Shown here piece after piece: positions 10,739 through 47,163 of a stretch of 64,000 nucleotides of DNA (position 1 is the stretch's first letter; each line of letters opens with the position of its first letter). The position numbers were made by a program, and so were the translations under genes. Source of the DNA: Armatimonadota bacterium (lineage in GTDB: Bacteria; Cloacimonadota; Cloacimonadia; Cloacimonadales; TCS61); assembly GCA_013203665.1 (NCBI GenBank), contig JABMPU010000035.1, positions 113-64,112 on the forward strand, in the 5' to 3' direction. The notes beneath the pieces were generated by a model, which was not told the DNA's origin, ran no database searches, and worked only from the letters and a program-made list of their open reading frames with translations.

Positions 10739-11296
10739 TTATTTCCTGAGTTTGACTGCTGTACCGTACACCAGTAATTCAGCAGCACTACCCACAACAC
10801 TTGTAGTCATATAGCGAACATTGATGATTGCATCGGATCCCATTTCTGCTGCCTGAGCCATCATCCTGTTGGTAGCAGTTGAGCGAGCGTTTCCCATCAT
10901 CTCGGTGTATTCAGTTAATTCACCACCCAGGATTAGCCTGATAAGAGCTGATAAATCTTTACCAAGCCAGATTGCAAAAACTGTATGTCCTTGGACCAGA
11001 CCAAGGATCTCACGAGTCTTCCTGCCGGGTACTGTATCAGAATTCAGTAGCAGAACCCTGGTTTCAAGCTCAGCAGGTAAAGACTTATCTGCGGGTCTCT
11101 TTGCTTTTCTTTGTTCCAGGGCTACTGTAATCAGAACCAATAGAATGCCACCCAGAAGACAGAAAACCGCTAGGCGCAGCCATAATGGTACAATAGGATC
11201 ATCAGCAACAAGTATGTGCCATGGCATTCCGACAAAGATTGCAACAAACAATCCAAGCACAAAAGCTAATGAACCAATATGTCGAAGTACTTTCAT
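10739..11296 (-). CDS. Membrane-anchored YbjQ/UPF0145-family protein
   Basis: The C-terminal 105 aa match the YbjQ pattern (ILGLVQGHTVFAIWLGKDL...GGELTEYTEMM..AR..A..RM...A.EMGSDAIINVRY). The N-terminus has two hydrophobic helices. The start at 11296 has an aaggagg RBS. Confidence 0.7.
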   Translation of the reverse strand: MKVLRHIGSLAFVLGLFVAIFVGMPWHILVADDPIVPLWLRLAVFCLLGGILLVLITVALEQRKAKRPADKSLPAELETRVLLLNSDTVPGRKTREILGLVQGHTVFAIWLGKDLSALIRLILGGELTEYTEMMGNARSTATNRMMAQAAEMGSDAIINVRYMTTSVVGSAAELLVYGTAVKLRK

Positions 11297-11387
11297 TGCT
11301 CCTCCTTTTTGCATTTTTTGACTAACATAAATCATGCTACTCATAAGATCTGCTTACAAGCGTAGATTTATTCACTTTTTGATATTT

Positions 11388-12200
11388 TCATCTTTCCAGA
11401 TACTGTGTTCTGTAGTTGAGTCTGCCATTTTTATATTCAAATATTCTGAAAGAAGGCTGTCTGCCCCAATGATCTGTTACGGGTGTAGAAATATACAACG
11501 GTATATCTCCCAGCCAGTAATGTTCATCCCTGTGAAAATGCCCAGCGAGCACACCTATAACGTTGTAGGCATTCAGGACTTCTTCCCATTTTGAGCGGAT
11601 GTCATTTTCCCAACCGCTGTGCATCTGGTTCAGGTAAAAATCTTCTACAGAGGGAATATGATGGAAAACTACAGTTGGTTTGCCTTCAGCACGTTGGAGT
11701 GCTTCTTCCAGTTCCGATAACGGCTCAAAATCTTCTACCAAAAATGATCTTGCCAGCGGATTTGAATAAAGTCCGATAAAAACAATTTCTCCGAACTCGT
11801 TCTCAGTGAGTAAAGGTCCGAAATGTTCTATATAGGCATCTTTTGTACCCTCAAGATTGTTGCGATAGATATCGTGGTTACCAGGGATCATTAAAAGCGG
11901 AGCTTCCAATTGTTCGAGTGCTGAAATAGCGTTAATTACGGCAATGGTATCTTCCATACCATAATTTACAATATCGCCGGTATGAACAATGCACTGAATG
12001 TGCATGGGAAGATTATTGATCTGCTCTACAATTTTCTGTGTAAGTTCCAGGTTATTCTCTGTTCCTACATGTGTATCTGTGAGATGCACAAAATAGAAAT
12101 GATTGTTCAGGCTGTCCGCTGACTCTATCTGAGCGCAAAGACATATACAGGAAACAAGCAAAACCACAAGTGTGAAAAATCTAATTTTATATTTGAACAT
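11388..12200 (-). CDS. Secreted calcineurin-like metallophosphoesterase
   Basis: A signal peptide is followed by the motifs FVHLTDTHVG, HTGDIVNYG, IPGNHD and AGHFH. Confidence 0.85.
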   Translation of the reverse strand: MFKYKIRFFTLVVLLVSCICLCAQIESADSLNNHFYFVHLTDTHVGTENNLELTQKIVEQINNLPMHIQCIVHTGDIVNYGMEDTIAVINAISALEQLEAPLLMIPGNHDIYRNNLEGTKDAYIEHFGPLLTENEFGEIVFIGLYSNPLARSFLVEDFEPLSELEEALQRAEGKPTVVFHHIPSVEDFYLNQMHSGWENDIRSKWEEVLNAYNVIGVLAGHFHRDEHYWLGDIPLYISTPVTDHWGRQPSFRIFEYKNGRLNYRTQYLER

Positions 12201-39279: not shown

Positions 39280-40299
39280 ATGTTTATAGATTACGCAAAA
39301 ATCAGAGTTGAGTCCGGCAAAGGCGGAAACGGTTGCGTCAGCTTCCGACGCGAAAAATTTGTATCAAAAGGTGGACCCGACGGCGGTGATGGTGGAAAAG
39401 GGGGAAATGTAATTGTGGTAGGTGATGAGAATGTAAACACCTTATTAGCATATCGTTACAATCACTTTTACAAAGCAAAGAACGGCAGGAACGGAATGGG
39501 TAACAATAAAACCGGAGCCAGAGGAGAAGACATCATCCTTAGATTTCCTTTAGGAACCGAGATCTATGATATCACACATGGAGAGAAAAATAAAATTGCC
39601 GAAATTACCCATAATAACGAGAAAATCGTGATTGTCAAAGGCGGGAATGGCGGCAGAGGAAACACACGATTCAAAAGTGCAACAAACAAAGCTCCACGTT
39701 TTGCCAAGCCCGGCGGAAACAGCGAATATTTTGAATTGGAATTGAACTTGAAATTGATGGCTGATGTCGGTTTAGTCGGTTTCCCAAATGCCGGAAAATC
39801 CACTTTGTTGAGCGTAGTTTCCGAAGCTCATCCCAAAATTGCAGACTATAGATTTACAACTTTAGAGCCTACATTAGGAGTTGTTCATATTGGAAATTTT
39901 GAAACTTTCGTGATGGCAGATATTCCCGGTTTGATCGAAGGAGCTCACGATGGTAAAGGTTTAGGAGTCCAGTTTTTAAAACATATTCAGCGAACCAAGA
40001 TTCTGCTTTTTATGATCGATGTAAATTCTATAGATCCTTTTGATGATTACCAGGTTTTGAAAAAGGAACTTCATCTTTATGATCCTTATCTGGATAAAAA
40101 GCCGCATGTTATCGTTCTCAGCAAAATCGACACGGTTCCGGAAAATGAAAAGAAAGATTTAGTGCAAATTATGAAAGGTGAATTTGAAGAAAAGCTTCAT
40201 GAACAGATTTTTCCGATTTCTTCAGTTTCCGGTGAAAATATAAGAGAGATGAAGAAGAAACTTATTAATATTCTAAAAAAAGATGATGAAGAAAATTAA
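39280..40299 (+). CDS. obg: GTPase Obg/CgtA
   Basis: MFIDYAKIRVESGKGGNGCVSFRREKF..GGPDGGDGGKGG is the Obg fold. The G1 motif is GFPNAGKST, with DIPGLIEGA and SKID downstream. Confidence 0.95.
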   Translation: MFIDYAKIRVESGKGGNGCVSFRREKFVSKGGPDGGDGGKGGNVIVVGDENVNTLLAYRYNHFYKAKNGRNGMGNNKTGARGEDIILRFPLGTEIYDITHGEKNKIAEITHNNEKIVIVKGGNGGRGNTRFKSATNKAPRFAKPGGNSEYFELELNLKLMADVGLVGFPNAGKSTLLSVVSEAHPKIADYRFTTLEPTLGVVHIGNFETFVMADIPGLIEGAHDGKGLGVQFLKHIQRTKILLFMIDVNSIDPFDDYQVLKKELHLYDPYLDKKPHVIVLSKIDTVPENEKKDLVQIMKGEFEEKLHEQIFPISSVSGENIREMKKKLINILKKDDEEN

Positions 40300-41371
40300 A
40301 GCCTGGATTAAGCTGCTCGAAACTCCTGAAATTGGCAATGCAAAAGCAATAAGATTAACTGAAATTCTGGGTGAGCCTAAAAATTTCATCGGCAAACCGG
40401 ATGACAGACTAACTGACATCGATTTTATTTCCGAATCCGCTAAAGAGAACCTGGCAAAAGGTTCCAAGCTGGAAAACTGGGATAAAATTGCAGAGCTAAT
40501 GGAAACTTTCGAAATCAAGTTCATTTCAATTCTGGATAAAGATTATCCGACATTATTAAAATCAATCTACACTCCACCACCCTTTTTATTCTACAGGGGA
40601 AAGCTGGATAAAGATATATTCCGAAGAACCATCGCCATAGTGGGAACACGAAAGCCGACAAATTACGGCAAAATAATGACAAAAAGAATTGGTAGTAAAC
40701 TGGTTCAAGCAGGATTTACAATTGTAAGCGGTCTTGCCTATGGAATCGATACGATAGCTCATTTATCGACCTTTGAAAATAATGGCAGGACGATTGCAGT
40801 TCTGGGAACCGGTTGTGACCAGATTTATCCCCCGATAAACCGTGAGATTGCAGAAAAAATCATAGAAACCGGGGCTTTGATTTCAGAATACCTTCCCGGT
40901 CAAAAGGTTGAAAAATGGAATTTTCCCACTAGGAACAGGATAATCAGCGGCATAAGTTTGGGAAGTTTGATCATCGAAGGTTCAAAGAAAAGTGGAGCAC
41001 TTCTAACTGCAAAATTCGCTTTAGACCAGAATCGTGATGTTTTTGCTCTTCCCGGAGATATTAACAGGGAACAATCTGCAGGTCCGAATTATTTGATTAA
41101 ATTGGGGGCAAAAATCGTAACCTGCCCGGATGACATCCTGGAAGAATACGACCTTGTTCTCGATAGACCGGAGAAGCCATTTCCAAAACTTTCTGAGAAA
41201 GAAGACAACATCTACCAGGTTCTTTTGGAGAACAAACCTGAAATCCAGTTTGATGATTTAATGTTGAAAACCGGCTATTCCGTTGGTGAACTTTCCACAG
41301 TTCTGCTTTCCCTGGAATTGAAAAGTATAATTAAGAAAGTTCCGGGGAATAAGATTGTGCCGTTGTATTGA
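40283..41371 (+). CDS. dprA: DNA-processing protein DprA
   Basis: AIVGTRKPTNYG, SGLAYGIDTIAH and the SGALLTA pattern are present. It overlaps the obg 3' end by 17 nt. Confidence 0.9.
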   Translation: MMKKIKAWIKLLETPEIGNAKAIRLTEILGEPKNFIGKPDDRLTDIDFISESAKENLAKGSKLENWDKIAELMETFEIKFISILDKDYPTLLKSIYTPPPFLFYRGKLDKDIFRRTIAIVGTRKPTNYGKIMTKRIGSKLVQAGFTIVSGLAYGIDTIAHLSTFENNGRTIAVLGTGCDQIYPPINREIAEKIIETGALISEYLPGQKVEKWNFPTRNRIISGISLGSLIIEGSKKSGALLTAKFALDQNRDVFALPGDINREQSAGPNYLIKLGAKIVTCPDDILEEYDLVLDRPEKPFPKLSEKEDNIYQVLLENKPEIQFDDLMLKTGYSVGELSTVLLSLELKSIIKKVPGNKIVPLY

Positions 41372-41413: not shown

Positions 41414-44400
41414 ATGACAAACATCAAAACTAACGAACGAGAATTAGCAAGCAAGATTGCTCAATGGTTCAACGAGCAAATAAATAGAGGAAAATATCCT
41501 TTTACATCTGCAAGTTGTGAACCTGGAATTAAAGTAGGAAAAACAACTTATTTCGGTGATATTATAATTTGGAAAAACAGGGAAATAGATAAAGCATTTT
41601 CCTATATTGAACTCAAACCACCATTTGGAGAAACTGAGAATTTAGAACGATTCAGAGAAAAAGCTATTCAGTTAAAAGTTAAAATCGCTTACACTTGGGA
41701 TTTTCAATCTTTGAATGCTTATGAAATAAAAGATAATAAAATTGAATTGTCTGCAACAGAAACATATTCTGTTCTAACGAATATTGAAGATTGGAAAAGA
41801 GGTGATAAACAAGCTTATATTAAAGCTTTCATTTCCAGGATTTGTGATGAGTTGTTAAATTTTTCCGAAAAAGGAAAGTTCCGAAAATTTAAACCTGAAA
41901 AGCATTATTTTATCCGCTTCTTACGAAATATCGTTGATGATCTGATTCCTTTATTCGAGCAATTTATCAGAGTATTCCATAAACAAAAAGAATTCAAAAG
42001 CATAATTAATAGGTTTGTTGCTGAACAGGGAATTGCCTATCCAAATGATGAAGATTTTTACAGATTAATTGCCAGCCAACGAGTTTATGGCTTGATTACA
42101 AAAATCATTTTTTATCTAACCATAAAAAGACACTTTAAAGAATTGCCCGAGTTATATTCTGAAGATGAGAAAGATCTCGAAGCAAATTTGAATTCTGCTT
42201 TTTCTAATGCTCGGGAAATTGACTGGCAGGCAGTTTTTGAAACTGATCCGATAGAAGAATTGGGAATTCCAAAGGAAGCTTATTCTTCTTTAAATGAATT
42301 GTTCTCACATCTAAAAATCTATAATTTCGGGGCTTTACCGGAAGATGTTATCGGTGAATTATTTGAAGAAATAATTGATCCCAAAAGACGACACGAATTA
42401 GGACAATATTTCACTCGCGAAGATCTCGTTGATTTAATCATTGCTACAATTGTGAATGATAAAGATAAAATCTATGCAGACCCGACTTGCGGTTCGGGAA
42501 CATTTCTCATCAGGTTGTATGATAGATTGAAATTTTTAAGCGGATACAGAATGAAGCATGAACAAGTTTTAGACAGGATCTGGGGAATCGATATTGGAAA
42601 ATTTCCCGCTGAACTTTCAACGATAAATTTATTCAGGCAATCTCCGAGTAATTTTGAAAATTTTCCCCGCATTATTCATAAAGATATTTTTGAAATATCT
42701 GTAGGACAGGAAATCGAATTTCCTCCGAATAATGTGAATTACAATCAGAGATATAACAAAATCAAAATAAAAATTCCTGAATTTTATGGTTTGGTTGGAA
42801 ACTTTCCGTATATCAAGCAGGATCTGATAGAAAAGAATGTGAAAGGATATAAGCAATTTCTTACTAAATTGTTGGCTTATGAATACCTCGGAGATTATCC
42901 GAAATTATTTAAATTAAACCATATTAAAGAAGCTGAATTCAAGAACTTCTTAGAAAAACCAGAATCAGAAAGAAAGAAACGAATTGATCACTGGTTAAAA
43001 AATAAATATGTTGAATTAAAATTATCAGGACAAGCTGATATTTACACTTACATTTTTATTCACACTGCAACTCTTCTTAGTAAAGCCGGTTCATTTGCCA
43101 TAATTACTTCAAATTCTTGGTTAGATGTCGCTTATGGTTCTGTTCTCAAAAAATTCTTTTTAGACCATTTCAAGATCAAGATGATAATTGCTTCCTGGGC
43201 AGAACCTTGGTTTGATGATGCTGCTGTGAATACCGTGTTCACAATTCTGGAAAAATGCGATGATGAAAAAGAACGAGATAACAACCTTGTTCATTTTGTA
43301 AAACTAAAGAAAAAATTAGAAGAACTAATACCGGAAAGAAATCTTAAAATCGAATCTAATAATCGCTGGAGAAGAATTGACGGAATTGTAAACACTATTG
43401 AATCTGCTCAATTTAAAGCTGATAAGATCGATGAGAAAATATCTTCTTTTGAAAATGAACAAATGCGTGTTCGAATGGTGAAACAGGAAAAACTCTTAGA
43501 AGAGCAAACATCGCAAAACGATCTTTCCAAATGGGGTAAATATCTAAGAGCACCGGATGTTTATTTTGATATTCTGGAAAAATGCAAAGATAAACTTGTT
43601 AGTCTCAAAGATATTACAAAAAGCTGCCAACGTGGTAAGACATCTGGAATTACAGATTTCTTTTATTTGCAAAATGTAAATGATGAATTCACAAATATTT
43701 CAAAAAAATGGCAAGGTAAAATTGAAAAATGTTACTTGAAAAAAGTAATAAAATCACCAAAAGAAAGTAAAAGTATAGAAATAAAACAGGAAAATTTAAA
43801 ATATTATTTATTTGTATGTAATAAAAGCAAAAATGAACTAAAAAAACTTAATCATTTTGGAGCTCTTACTTATATTGATTGGGGTGAAACCCAAAGAACC
43901 AAAAATAATGTACTTTGGCCGGAAGTTCCCTCTGTGCAGGGAAGACAATATTGGTGGTCATTTGAAATACGTGAACCATCAAAAGTATTATGGACCGAAA
44001 TGTGCAACGATAATTTTAGAACGTTACATAATAGTAAAAAAGTAATAGAAAGTGATAAATTTTATAGAATTGATACTGAAGATAAAAAGCTTTCTGAGAA
44101 TATTGGATACTATTTAAATTCAACTATTTGCTTTCTATTCCGAGAATTGAATTCGTTCATTTCATTAGGAGACGGTGTCATAAAAACACCTGTTTACGAA
44201 TTACAGAATTTAGAAATTCCTAGTAGTATTAAAGAATTCAAATATAAAAATGATAAACTATTATCTCGTAATATAGCAAAAATATTTAAAGAAGTTAAAC
44301 TCAAAGATCGTCAAGAACTGGACAAAGCAGTTTTACAAGCACTCGGTTTAAATCCGGAAGAATATCTTCAACGTATTTATGATGGCCTAACTCAAATGGT

Positions 44401-44914
44401 AAGAGAGCGTCTAGATTTACCCAAAATGCGCAAGAAAAGAAGAAGACAACAAATTCAAATCTCTTACAATGAAGTTAAAACTTCTGTGGTAAATGAAATC
44501 ATCGGCAGCCAACTGAAAAAATTCCCTGAAGATTTTTATACGGATGCAAAGCTGGGTCATGATTATGAAAGTATAGAAACAGCAATTTATAATACCAGTG
44601 GGAAAGTACTTCACATCGATGAGTTTATGCATATCTGCACTTTGATAGATGAAGATGGTGAAGAAATATTTTCTACAAAAAATTTACAAGAAGCTCAGTT
44701 TGCTGTGATTCTGGCAAAACCTGATATTTTTAGATTAAAGATTCCGAAAGATGAAAAGATAACAAAAAGCATTTTAGACAATTATAAAAATTATGTTAAT
44801 CAATTAAAAGAACAATTAGAAGCAAATGCTCAACAAAAATTGCATAGCTGGAACGAAGCTGAACAAATGGCAAAAGAGATTTTGGAAGAGTATGGGTTGA
44901 GGATTTTATGGTAG
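41414..44914 (+). CDS. 1166-aa single-chain nuclease + N6-adenine DNA methyltransferase + large C-terminal (TRD-like) region; Type IIG-like RM enzyme with a non-canonical motif IV
   Basis: The N-terminal PD-(D/E)xK-like motif is YFGDIIIWKNREIDKAFSYIELKP. The MTase motifs are GQYFTREDLVDLI, motif I YADPTCGSGTFLI and motif IV LVGNFPYIKQD (NFPY instead of NPPY). No helicase motifs were seen. Confidence 0.75.
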   Translation: MTNIKTNERELASKIAQWFNEQINRGKYPFTSASCEPGIKVGKTTYFGDIIIWKNREIDKAFSYIELKPPFGETENLERFREKAIQLKVKIAYTWDFQSLNAYEIKDNKIELSATETYSVLTNIEDWKRGDKQAYIKAFISRICDELLNFSEKGKFRKFKPEKHYFIRFLRNIVDDLIPLFEQFIRVFHKQKEFKSIINRFVAEQGIAYPNDEDFYRLIASQRVYGLITKIIFYLTIKRHFKELPELYSEDEKDLEANLNSAFSNAREIDWQAVFETDPIEELGIPKEAYSSLNELFSHLKIYNFGALPEDVIGELFEEIIDPKRRHELGQYFTREDLVDLIIATIVNDKDKIYADPTCGSGTFLIRLYDRLKFLSGYRMKHEQVLDRIWGIDIGKFPAELSTINLFRQSPSNFENFPRIIHKDIFEISVGQEIEFPPNNVNYNQRYNKIKIKIPEFYGLVGNFPYIKQDLIEKNVKGYKQFLTKLLAYEYLGDYPKLFKLNHIKEAEFKNFLEKPESERKKRIDHWLKNKYVELKLSGQADIYTYIFIHTATLLSKAGSFAIITSNSWLDVAYGSVLKKFFLDHFKIKMIIASWAEPWFDDAAVNTVFTILEKCDDEKERDNNLVHFVKLKKKLEELIPERNLKIESNNRWRRIDGIVNTIESAQFKADKIDEKISSFENEQMRVRMVKQEKLLEEQTSQNDLSKWGKYLRAPDVYFDILEKCKDKLVSLKDITKSCQRGKTSGITDFFYLQNVNDEFTNISKKWQGKIEKCYLKKVIKSPKESKSIEIKQENLKYYLFVCNKSKNELKKLNHFGALTYIDWGETQRTKNNVLWPEVPSVQGRQYWWSFEIREPSKVLWTEMCNDNFRTLHNSKKVIESDKFYRIDTEDKKLSENIGYYLNSTICFLFRELNSFISLGDGVIKTPVYELQNLEIPSSIKEFKYKNDKLLSRNIAKIFKEVKLKDRQELDKAVLQALGLNPEEYLQRIYDGLTQMVRERLDLPKMRKKRRRQQIQISYNEVKTSVVNEIIGSQLKKFPEDFYTDAKLGHDYESIETAIYNTSGKVLHIDEFMHICTLIDEDGEEIFSTKNLQEAQFAVILAKPDIFRLKIPKDEKITKSILDNYKNYVNQLKEQLEANAQQKLHSWNEAEQMAKEILEEYGLRILW

Positions 44915-45450
44915 ATTTAAAGACTATCCTAGCTCATATCTTAAAACACTTTAAAGAATACGAAATTGGCTATGGTAAAACCAGATTACTTAAAATAGCT
45001 TATTTGGTAGAGCTTTTCTATTATCGTAATGAAATGAAGCGATTGACCAATGAAGAATGGATTTTTTATAAATTTGGTCCGTATTTAATGAATTATGATA
45101 ATATCCTTAATGATAAAAAGATATTTGTTGTTGAAGACATTAAAGATGATTTTACAAAAGTTACATTAAATGAAAGTGCTACAATTCCTGTATTACCATC
45201 TGAAATTAGTCTTATTATTAATCATTCAGTAAAAAAATATGGAAACATGGATTTCTATAAATTATTGGATTATGTTTATTATGATACAGAACCAATGATA
45301 GATGTTAATAAAAGATTAGATAAATTGGATTTCAGCTCAGTTAAACCCCAAAAATATTACGAAATCAAAGAATTTAAAAATTTAGATAAAATACTTGAGA
45401 AATTAAATTTTAAATATCAAGAAAAATTTAAAAATGCCAGAAAAATATAA
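44908..45450 (+). CDS. Panacea-domain (DUF4065, SocA/GepA-like) protein, candidate antitoxin
   Basis: GKTRLLKIAYLVELFYYRNEMKRLTNEEWIFYKFGPY follows the DUF4065 pattern (t.lKLqKLlYyaq...g.pL..e.f.AW.yGPv). The later stretch VKKYGNMDFYKLLDYVYYDTEPM matches the second conserved block. The ATG overlaps the methylase stop (ATGGTAG). Confidence 0.6.
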   Translation: MVDLKTILAHILKHFKEYEIGYGKTRLLKIAYLVELFYYRNEMKRLTNEEWIFYKFGPYLMNYDNILNDKKIFVVEDIKDDFTKVTLNESATIPVLPSEISLIINHSVKKYGNMDFYKLLDYVYYDTEPMIDVNKRLDKLDFSSVKPQKYYEIKEFKNLDKILEKLNFKYQEKFKNARKI

Positions 45451-46222
45451 AGGTATTCCGAAATTATATGATAACATTTTATCGCTTTCTGAAGGTGATT
45501 GGACATTCTATGAATGGTTAGATTTAAAAAGTGATTTGCAGGTGGGTCAAATTTGTTGTGCTCCTGCATGGTATGAAAAGAAAAAAAGATGGTTTTTCAC
45601 AACTGCATTTTATGATAGAATAAATGAAGCCAAATCAACTTGGTCTGCAAAAGAATATTCTAGTGAAAGATCAAAAAACAAAAATACAGACATGAATGTT
45701 AATAGATATTTCGGCTTAGAATCTGATGAAAATTTGATATCTACACCTGGCAAATATAGGCCAGTTTTACTCTTGAAATATTATGAAACTGACTGGTGGA
45801 GTAAAACATATCCAAATAATAGCTGGTTATGTTTTCCAATATTTAGTTATAAAAAAAGTAGACACAATCAAGAATATGTTTTGGAAGATATGAAATTAAA
45901 CAATCCAGACAGATTTTATCTTCCTCCTCAATATAATCCTGAACTACCTGGTTTGAATGAAGAAAGTTCGGTTTTGCTTCATTCAATACAATTTATAGAG
46001 AAAACTTACCTTTATCCTTTAGAATGTTGTTTAGATAATAAAGAGTACAAGCATTTTAAAATTTCAGAAAAAGCATTGAAATTAGTTTTTTTCCATTTCA
46101 TAAAAAATACTAACATTTTAAATATCTTTTTGGATAGAAAAGAGAAAGAAAATCATGAAGAAAATAATGAATATGAGTTGTTTAAAATGTACATTGAGGA
46201 TTTACTTAAAGAATATGATTAA
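45434..46222 (+). CDS. 262-aa protein with a divergent, insertion-expanded MazF/PemK-like pattern, candidate toxin
   Basis: The order of blocks mirrors MazF/PemK. VGQICCAPAWY corresponds to GDIwwvdf. GKYRPVLLLK corresponds to g.RPavVls. SWLCFPIFSYKK corresponds to v.vvPlTs..k. PGLNEESSVLLHSIQFIEKTYL corresponds to gl.k.S.vl.dqirtidk.rl. It overlaps the upstream gene by 17 nt. The call rests on pattern only. Confidence 0.4.
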   Translation: MPEKYKGIPKLYDNILSLSEGDWTFYEWLDLKSDLQVGQICCAPAWYEKKKRWFFTTAFYDRINEAKSTWSAKEYSSERSKNKNTDMNVNRYFGLESDENLISTPGKYRPVLLLKYYETDWWSKTYPNNSWLCFPIFSYKKSRHNQEYVLEDMKLNNPDRFYLPPQYNPELPGLNEESSVLLHSIQFIEKTYLYPLECCLDNKEYKHFKISEKALKLVFFHFIKNTNILNIFLDRKEKENHEENNEYELFKMYIEDLLKEYD

Positions 46223-46365
46223 TTTTTTTTTAAATACAAATTGCTTCAAAAAATATTTAGAATAAAAAAAGATAGTTCATCAAATGAAAAATTATTTGAC
46301 ATTAATAACTTTGAAAATAACTTGCTTTTTGATTTTATAACTCCAAGAGAATTTCTCTTGGCCGC

Positions 46366-46396
46366 AAGGTTGCCGAAAGGCAACCTTAGCTTTTTC
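46366..46396 (+). terminator. Rho-independent terminator after the three-gene operon
   Basis: aaggttgcc-gaaa-ggcaacctt is followed by agctttttc. A second hairpin, ccaagag-aattt-ctcttgg, lies just upstream at 46343-46361. Confidence 0.65.
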
Positions 46397-46467
46397 TTAT
46401 GAGAATTAATATCTTAAATCATTAAGAAAAATTAGTGCTAATTAGTGTAAATTCGTGGATAAAAAAA

Positions 46468-47163
46468 ATGAAAAAACGTAAAACCAAAATTACCAGAAAT
46501 TATTTACTTCATCCTGCCGGCTCAGTTCTCATCCAAACCGGCAATACAAAAGTGATTTGTACAGCAACTGTTCAGGAAGGAGTTCCTCCATTTCTTCTAA
46601 ATAAAAATCAAGGTTGGATCACTGCAGAATACAGCATGCTGCCCGGAGCTCCGGATAAACGATTTTCCAGAGAATCTATCCGCGGAAAATTAGCTGGTAG
46701 AACTGTGGAAATTCAACGTTTGATCGGTCGTTCTCTGCGAGCTGTTGTGGATATGAATCTATTTCCGGGTTATACGATTATGATAGATTGTGACGTAATC
46801 CAAGCTGATGGTGGAACCAGAACTGCTGCCATAACCGGTGCTTGTGTGGCTCTTAATGATGCTTTTCAAAAAATGCAAAGTAATGGTCTGATAGATAAGA
46901 ATCCTTTGAAAGTATTTGTAGCAGCCATCAGTGTGGGAATTGTGAATGGAAAACCTGTTTTAGATTTGGATTATGAGCAGGATTCCAAAGCTGATGTAGA
47001 TATGAACATTGTAATGACTGAAAGCGGGAAATTTGTAGAAATTCAGGGAACTGCCGAATCCAATCCATTTTCTGATAAAGAATTGACTGAACTGATCAAG
47101 CTGGCAAAAGAAGGGATAAGGCAGTTGATAAATGAGCAGAAAAATACAGATTTTCATTCTTAG
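46468..47163 (+). CDS. rph: Ribonuclease PH
   Basis: [31 protein letters not shown] and [19 protein letters not shown] are present. I prefer the start at 46468 (MKKRKTK); the upstream 11 codons are built from an intergenic word repeat. Confidence 0.92.

Follow-up and report, generated by a model that had tools for sequence, protein, structure and literature searches.

An enlarged, divergent MazF-like putative toxin encoded with a standalone Panacea-domain protein

A Panacea gene overlaps the gene for a 262-residue MazF-like protein

We analyzed a stretch of 64,000 nucleotides (nt) from contig JABMPU010000035.1 of assembly GCA_013203665.1 (positions 113 to 64,112), deposited as Armatimonadota bacterium and placed by GTDB in the Cloacimonadota. 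This whole stretch is called the window, and positions are counted from its first letter. Our subject is a pair of overlapping genes that encode a standalone Panacea-domain protein and, directly downstream, an enlarged and highly divergent protein that resembles MazF/PemK. A first-pass annotation made from the letters of the window had placed the second gene at 45434-46222 as an open reading frame (ORF) of 262 amino acids (aa), and the ORF list of the window has it exactly there, on the + strand and with an ATG start. This ORF begins 17 nt inside the 3′ end of the 180-aa ORF at 44908-45450, which itself overlaps a 1166-aa ORF (41414-44914) by 7 nt. The G+C content falls to 0.27 across 45-46 kb, the lowest 1-kb value of the window. 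The two genes are:

44908..45450, + strand: panA, a standalone Panacea-domain protein of 180 aa, putative antitoxin (Pfam SocA_Panacea, PF13274)
45434..46222, + strand: panT-like gene, a 262-aa enlarged, divergent protein of the MazF/PemK superfamily, putative endoribonuclease toxin (hhalign, AlphaFold, fold search)

The partner had been described beforehand as Panacea-like, and indeed Pfam assigns residues 27-124 of the 180-aa protein to PF13274 with an E-value of 1.5e-9 and 39.2 bits (the cut-off is 25.7). The pairing is conserved as well. The gene immediately upstream of the toxin homologue encodes a Panacea protein in 13 of the 13 loci that have enough upstream sequence (the window, L001-L004, L073-L075, L078-L080, L083 and L085; L084 is a second contig, with a protein identical to that of L083), and these loci span Cloacimonadota-like, Spirochaetes, Syntrophaceae and other metagenome-assembled genomes (MAGs). 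The 17-nt overlap between panA and the toxin gene is kept down to ∼42% identity (20 nt in L002), and at the most distant loci the two genes overlap by 4 nt or are separated by 1 nt. Kurata et al. (2022) identified PanAT pairs by a PF13274 gene within 100 nt and by conservation of the pair; here the two genes overlap by 17 nt, and they stay together at all of these loci, in several phyla and between flanks that differ.

PanA and toxin identities co-vary with r = 0.93 over 66 locus pairs, and with r = 0.90 when close pairs are left out. Because the two sets of identities track each other, we conclude that panA and the toxin gene are inherited as a unit.

The large size is a trait of the family

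The 262-aa protein has no match in Pfam (even at E ≤1), NCBIfam or PADLOC and no credible match in PHROGs. Likewise, the sequences in the PDB yielded no match by phmmer, or by hmmsearch with profiles of 10 and of 90 family members; PDB entries for an adenovirus fibre and an ephrin receptor, at E-values of 0.05 or worse, were noise and were gone once a profile was used. A tblastn search with two family members against annotated phages and plasmids returned nothing.

Relatives were found in much larger collections. A word-indexed search of 5.8 billion proteins gave 10 relatives of 255-268 aa, and an exhaustive search of 1.84 billion cluster representatives with a hidden Markov model (HMM), the kind of homologue profile that the first-pass annotation had advised building, gave 110 representatives at E ≤1e-3 and 33 at E ≤1e-30. 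Nearly all full-length members are 210-270 aa long and the shorter entries are fragments. Since this range holds for nearly all full-length relatives, the large size is a trait of the family and is not due to a fusion or to a mis-called gene; the architectural variant that had been proposed from this one ORF is of a length typical for its family.

All relatives come from MAGs or metagenomes, and ‘hypothetical protein’ is the sole name given to them in any source. MAGs that carry the labels Armatimonadetes and Cloacimonetes are the deposited sources of the window's own protein. One genome per species was also scanned, within the limits of the search pattern; this gave six loci, all of them in MAGs, assigned to Spirochaetes, Syntrophaceae, Thermodesulfobacteriota, Proteobacteria and, in one case, labelled only ‘bacterium’. 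In the literature, a search for MazF-like toxins of enlarged or atypical form turned up nothing relevant. The analysis defines a family of ∼110 sequence clusters that no domain or defense database recognizes, and an HMM from the 90-member alignment would let annotation and defense-island pipelines recognize its genes.

Profile comparison and structure prediction point to the MazF/CcdB fold

The assignment to the MazF/PemK fold had been made from four short blocks in the protein, and conventional searches give faint signals in the same direction. PemK_toxin is the only Pfam family matched by more than one member (3 of the 90, best E-value 0.024), the sub-threshold matches to the MazF HMM keep the same order along the sequence, and BLASTP against Bacillus subtilis MazF (BsMazF) aligns the last block only, with an E-value of 0.031. 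The window protein does not reach the PF02452 gathering threshold of 23.1 bits; genuine MazFs score 85-131 bits.

Profiles were also compared with hhalign. The profile of the 90-member family matched five reference sequences (MazF, Kid and ChpBK proteins that Pfam recognizes as PemK_toxin) with 74% probability and an E-value of 2.8e-5. Against a profile of 59 MazF sequences, made of 54 MazF genes from viral contigs and the five references, the match rose to 88.3% probability (E-value 2.9e-6, score 42.7) over 92 columns. The real match is well above the level of chance: in the controls, P values were 0.41-0.5 for reversed profiles, and of 40 MazF profiles with shuffled columns the best had a score of 17.5 and an E-value of 0.037.

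The alignments map the blocks, which are present in the order that had been described for them, to strands of MazF. GKYRPVLLLK aligns to MazF β2 (GGVRPVLVIQ) and SWLCFPIFSYK to MazF β3 (TAIVAAITAQI). In the comparison of the 90-member and 59-sequence profiles, GLNEESSVLLHSIQFIEKTYL aligns to GFERDSVILLEQIRTIDKQRL of MazF; further, ESSVLLHSIQFIEKTYL aligns to DSVILLEQIRTIDKQRL, and the helix at residues 212-226 aligns to the C-terminal helix of MazF. The first block is weak when taken alone: GQICCA aligns to MazF β1 (RGDIYFA) with an E-value of 0.0035 and 9% probability. When residues 49-99 are deleted, GQICCA joins the MazF alignment, which then extends over 115 columns with 90% probability.

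Structure prediction gave concordant results. An AlphaFold model made with 10 sequences had a predicted local distance difference test (pLDDT) score of 65.7, and its top 48 PDB matches were all MazF, MoxT, YdcE or CptN. With 90 sequences, the pLDDT rose to 93.0 with a predicted template modeling score of 0.88, and the only credible PDB matches of this model, far from being of an unrelated fold, were MazF-mt1 (6kyt_G) and MazF-mt9 (6a6x_A), each with a probability of ≥0.99, a template modeling (TM) score of 0.55-0.57 relative to the target and an E-value of 0.024-0.031. MazF-mt1 and MazF-mt9 are MazFs with long β1-β2 loops (PMC11394972), which fits the site at which the family carries an insertion. 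The model has the SH3-like β-barrel and C-terminal helix of the CcdB/MazF fold; the protein departs from the compact single domain of ∼100-130 aa that is usual for PemK/MazF, at 262 aa.

We considered whether the likeness to MazF might be spurious, such that the protein would be an unrelated β-rich protein that is simply a conserved neighbor of a Panacea gene. Every single-sequence and HMM search fails, the Foldseek E-values lie above 1e-3 and the first AlphaFold model was of low confidence, all as expected from a chance resemblance. Nevertheless, profile-profile comparison with clean controls and structure searches on two models agree, with the same order of blocks, and where the family has invariant residues, they coincide with the Arg-Pro motif of MazF or with the proline of its ‘PxT’ motif in β3, so that we regard a spurious likeness as very improbable. 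Because profile comparison, structure prediction and the weak sequence signals agree, the protein is best placed, on the strength of alignments and models, in the MazF/CcdB-fold superfamily, beyond the reach of the PF02452 model.

As a separate observation, the best viral fold match in BFVD is A0A8S5RGV8 (virus sp. ctiha2), a 266-aa protein from a viral metagenome, deposited as ‘PemK-like protein’, with an E-value of 5e-3, a probability of 0.99 and a TM score of only 0.32. From the modeled structures, this may be another enlarged MazF-like protein.

Four additions surround the MazF core

The alignments and the model together divide the protein into the following segments:

45434..45544, + strand: residues 1-37, N-terminal extension with helix 11-18 and a short strand (DSSP of the model; outside the hhalign match)
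45545..45571, + strand: residues 38-46, GQICCAPAW, MazF β1 equivalent (hhalign with the insertion deleted)
45572..45733, + strand: residues 47-100, folded insertion of ∼54 aa at the MazF β1-β2 loop (model, hhalign)
45749..45790, + strand: residues 106-119, GKYRPVLLLKYYET, MazF β2 equivalent (hhalign)
45815..45847, + strand: residues 128-138, NNSWLCFPIFS, MazF β3 equivalent (hhalign register)
45854..45910, + strand: residues 141-159, inserted segment after β3, in the region of the β3-β4 loop, with helix 146-153 (gap in the MazF template in hhalign; model)
45911..46114, + strand: residues 160-227, MazF β4-β7 (160-211) and C-terminal helix (212-226) (hhalign, BLASTP, model)
46115..46219, + strand: residues 228-262, extra acidic helical tail, pI 4.5 (past the end of the MazF alignment)

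The insertion of ∼50 aa reported after the first block is real: it occupies residues ∼47-100 and has a family occupancy of 0.94. In the model, it consists of a β-hairpin (53-59/69-74) with short helices at a pLDDT of ∼89-96, and it ends at the near-invariant E99. The β1-β2 loop, where this insertion sits, gates the access of substrate and antitoxin in MazF. Within residues 160-227, ESSVLLHSIQFIEK aligns to DSVILLEQIRTIDK.

Two further additions had escaped the first-pass annotation. One is the 37-residue N-terminal extension, which is without counterpart in canonical MazF and has a family occupancy of 0.77. The other is the helix-containing segment after β3 (∼141-159), in which H144 (66 of 90 members) and Q146 are conserved.

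The C-terminal tail is acidic and helical, as had been reported, but its length of ∼70 aa was overstated; residues ∼193-230 align to the last strands and C-terminal helix of MazF, and the true addition is therefore ∼35 aa (228-262). The model has helices at 235-244 and 246-261. In 87% of members the tail carries a net negative charge, and its median length is 30 aa. No part of the protein is less conserved than the tail (occupancy 0.75), which some members lack. A basic C-terminal extension of PanA, considered as a counterpart that would pair with the acidic tail, was rejected: the net charge of this extension ranges from -1 to +4 across loci.

The predicted catalytic center is conserved in part and altered at the threonine position

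In the 90-member alignment, K107, R109 and P135 are each present in 90 of 90 sequences. G38 is found in 86 of 90, E99 in 84 (with Asp in the other 6) and Q186 in 81. R109-P110 aligns to R25-P26 of BsMazF, placing an arginine at the catalytic position of MazF (Arg25 in BsMazF, Arg29 in EcMazF), and P135 falls on the proline of the ‘VPCT/VPVT/APIT’ motif that EcMazF, Kid and ChpBK have in β3. In MazF, Arg25 acts as the general acid/base and Thr48 stabilizes the transition state; mutation of either residue inactivates the enzyme (PMC7354611, PMC11394972).

The family differs from MazF at two positions in this region. First, the canonical Thr position (Thr48 in BsMazF, at +2 from the Pro) is Phe or Tyr, as residue 137, in 86 of 90 members, and a Ser or Thr stands one residue further on, at 138, in 75 of 90. 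Second, the invariant K107 occupies a position two residues before the Arg at which MazF has Gly. Since R109 and K107 are invariant while the Thr position is aromatic and the Ser/Thr is shifted by one, the alignment is consistent with a catalytic center that is conserved but remodeled.

The same residues bear on whether the protein would act on RNA at all. The CcdB/MazF fold supports both RNase and gyrase-poison types of activity. A protein with this fold and the Arg/Lys patch could poison a protein target in the manner of CcdB, or could bind RNA or the ribosome without cleavage, and still be neutralized by PanA. An aromatic residue where MazF has its Thr would suit such an activity, as would the folded subdomain that replaces the β1-β2 loop, which shapes the active site of MazF; moreover, CcdB is among the fold matches (1vub_D, rank 41). 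However, that CcdB match is very weak (E-value 2.0, probability 0.21), and the family profile aligns to MazF including the Arg-Pro motif, with R109 invariant and S/T138 adjoining the Thr position. In addition, some MazFs with Lys for Arg or Ser for Thr remain active (PMC7354611). On balance, we consider an activity other than RNA cleavage unlikely.

The gene pair occurs in varied mobile and defense-related surroundings

The neighbors of the pair differ between loci. The flanks include a type I HsdR gene, an SNase gene and an HTH-M78 gene in L001; Mob (Mob_Pre), an integrase-like gene (a faint Pfam match), a small terminase and DnaB in L002; HTH_17 and a small terminase in L003; a DUF1016 nuclease-like gene in L004; and a large methyltransferase in L073. 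In L080, the flanks are a prophage tail module and then an N6_N4 methyltransferase, DUF3800 and ResIII. Ordinary metabolic genes flank the pair in L079. The panA-toxin cassette is mobile and sits in defense islands and mobile elements.

Two of these arrangements deserve separate description. In L002 (486-4814) and L003 (1255-5062), the cassette lies beside a Terminase_2 gene and mobile-element genes, and no other phage structural genes are present; by analogy, this layout is reminiscent of phage satellites. Phage satellites often carry defense cargo. In L080 (1-6750), the cassette directly follows the tail module (HK97-gp10-like, tail assembly chaperone and Phage_tail_T genes), a moron-like position, and after the cassette comes an HTH/Peptidase_M78 (ImmA-like) gene of opposite orientation.

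The family is a divergent branch of a known superfamily, and its pairing has precedent

The closest characterized proteins are those of the MazF/PemK/Kid/EndoA group (PF02452), including B. subtilis MazF and the M. tuberculosis proteins MazF-mt1 and MazF-mt9. The window protein shares with them the strand order and C-terminal helix, the Arg-Pro with which β2 begins, the proline of ‘PxT’ in β3 (P135), the ESxxxxxxIQxI(E/D)K block, and a gene that follows an antitoxin gene with overlap. In contrast, it is 2.3 times longer (262 versus ∼110 aa) and carries the ∼54-aa β1-β2 insertion, the N-terminal segment, the post-β3 helix and the acidic tail. The family also has Phe/Tyr at the Thr position, a Ser/Thr shifted by one and Lys for Gly before the Arg; it falls below every HMM threshold, and its partner is Panacea, not MazE/PemI.

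CcdB, the gyrase poison of the F plasmid, and the type III toxins ToxN/CptN share the SH3-like barrel, with CptN among the matches of the first model and CcdB among those of the second, but these matches are much weaker than those to MazF, and the window locus has neither a CcdA nor an RNA-repeat antitoxin. Judged from sequence, the Arg-Pro motif and the profile point to the MazF branch over CcdB/CptN.

The pairing of Panacea with such toxins has precedent. Kurata et al. (PMC8832971) showed that the toxins partnered by Panacea antitoxins come in dozens of folds; PemK is one of them, and HHpred relates several clusters to EndoA/PemK/MazF. The PanT proteins of P. moraviensis (cluster T6) and B. 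ruminantium belong to validated toxin-antitoxin pairs and are translation inhibitors; a T5 member from C. bovis is toxic and a T8 member from F. xanthum is non-toxic (PMC8832971). MazF/PemK is among the recurrent toxin folds, and standalone Panacea neutralizes directly (Ernits et al., PMC10440598). The window pair resembles the MazF-like PanA-PanT pairs (T5, T6, T8) in having a Panacea protein without an N-terminal domain encoded upstream of a toxin with the MazF fold that goes unrecognized in domain databases, and in being a two-gene, overlapping, mobile cassette. It differs in that representative sequences of T5 and T8 reach 99.5-99.7% HHpred probability against MazF and these clusters occur in cultured RefSeq genomes, whereas the window family reaches 88% with a 90-sequence profile and comes from MAGs and metagenomes only. 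We considered whether the family is simply cluster T8 or T5; indirect evidence, drawn from the published descriptions of the clusters, argues against this. By those descriptions T5 and T8 are much closer to canonical MazF, and the window family has no named or RefSeq-isolate member, with only six loci, all in MAGs, in the species-genome scan.

The suggestion in the first-pass annotation of a candidate new toxin family thus holds in part. The proteins form a new, divergent subfamily, but the superfamily and the pairing were already known: because MazF-like PanT proteins with their PanA partners have already been described and validated (PMC8832971), this is not a new kind of system.

A PanA-neutralized endoribonuclease toxin is the favored explanation

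The explanation that we think probable is that the window encodes an enlarged MazF-type endoribonuclease toxin, neutralized by PanA and carried by a mobile cassette of two genes that lodges in defense islands. The analysis itself shows the homology and fold, the conserved residues, the obligatory pairing with its co-divergence and the mobile or defense-related context; the RNase activity, toxicity, neutralization by binding and biological role that we infer for the pair would be as follows. The genes at 44908-45450 and 45434-46222 would constitute an antitoxin-first PanA-PanT cassette, in which the SH3-like barrel of the putative toxin has gained four additions, namely the N-terminal extension, the β1-β2 subdomain, the post-β3 helix and the acidic C-terminal tail. 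The free toxin would be a metal-independent endoribonuclease that uses R109, the equivalent of MazF Arg25, as general acid/base, assisted by K107 and probably by S/T138. Its cleavage of cellular RNA would stop translation, and the standalone Panacea protein would bind the toxin and neutralize it directly. The cassette would probably serve in abortive-infection defense or in stabilizing the element that carries it.

A different mode of control can be envisaged, in which the pair is not a classical type II system. PanA could be a SocA-like protease adaptor, as in type VI systems, or Panacea could sense a trigger while the acidic C-terminal helices of the toxin lie in the RNA groove in cis, much as the acidic C-terminus of MazE does in trans. 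The Panacea domain is named after SocA, a ClpXP adaptor antitoxin (Pfam ‘Antitoxin SocA-like’), and Ernits et al. favor a sensory role for Panacea, citing the fused toxin-antitoxin CapRel (PMC10440598). The predominantly negative charge of the tail, which is conserved in 87% of members, is in line with occupation of the groove, as the MazE fragments that bind MazF are acidic, with a pI of 3.4-5.2 (PMC11394972). On the other hand, every PanAT pair that Kurata et al. examined made complexes typical of type II, and standalone Panacea neutralized directly. Moreover, the tail is the part of the toxin that is least conserved and that some members do without. We give this mode of control little weight relative to direct neutralization by PanA.

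It is also conceivable, if doubtful, that the additions have rewired the control of MazF altogether: the β1-β2 subdomain and the acidic helices might act in cis to gate the RNA groove or to inhibit it, a change in catalysis or substrate recognition might underlie the aromatic residue at the Thr position, and Panacea might sense phage infection instead of simply plugging the toxin. If so, uncultured anaerobes would have in this pair a module dedicated to abortive infection, regulated unlike any characterized MazF.

With this family, the MazF superfamily comes to include proteins of over twice the usual size in which the canonical catalytic Thr is replaced. Because the subdomain sits in the access-controlling β1-β2 loop and the catalytic Thr is replaced, the family provides a natural test of how far the active site and the inhibition of MazF can be remodeled, and of how a standalone Panacea neutralizes a MazF fold without MazE.

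Island neighbors of the gene pair in the window and in related loci

In the window, obg/dprA (39280-41371) and rph (46435-47163) bracket a block of three genes, in which a restriction-modification (R-M) gene precedes panA and the toxin gene. The remaining features of this block are:

41414..44914, + strand: type IIG restriction-methyltransferase of 1166 aa, a single chain, island neighbor (PADLOC, Pfam)
46366..46387, + strand: terminator-like hairpin with a 9-bp stem, five G-C pairs and a T-run, closing the unit ahead of rph

The 1166-aa protein is REase_MTase_IIG in PADLOC (E-value 1.4e-57) and also matches N6_Mtase and Eco57I in Pfam. We asked whether this R-M gene might be a third component of the system and rejected the idea: only close relatives have it, and the distant loci have unrelated neighbors. 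In L083 and L084, a 244-aa gene separates the type IIG R-M gene from panA. Because the R-M gene is limited to the closest relatives and is once split off in this manner, the conserved unit is two genes, and the R-M gene is a neighbor within the same island. The type IIG enzyme is found downstream of dprA in the close relatives (L083-L085) as in the window, and the interval between dprA and rph therefore looks like a hotspot at which a small defense island integrates in this lineage.

Several other genes were noted near the cassette. The 244-aa gene (5728-6462 in L083, 4594-5328 in L084) is without a Pfam match and is missing from the window and from L085. Approximately 5 kb downstream of the cassette in L083 (12901-14543, - strand), an AbiEii-family gene adjoins a gene for a metallo-β-lactamase-fold protein that matches the anti-Pycsar Apyc1 family, putatively a defense gene beside an anti-defense-like gene. 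DUF3800 genes occur near the cassette in two unrelated loci, at 2184-2831 in L085, between dprA and the R-M gene, and at 11016-11822 in the L080 prophage, after the N6_N4 methyltransferase. Finally, a 53-aa ORF with a TTG start lies between the toxin stop codon and rph in the window (46241-46402, + strand); it holds the hairpin at 46366-46387 and is probably non-coding 3′ untranslated region and not a gene.

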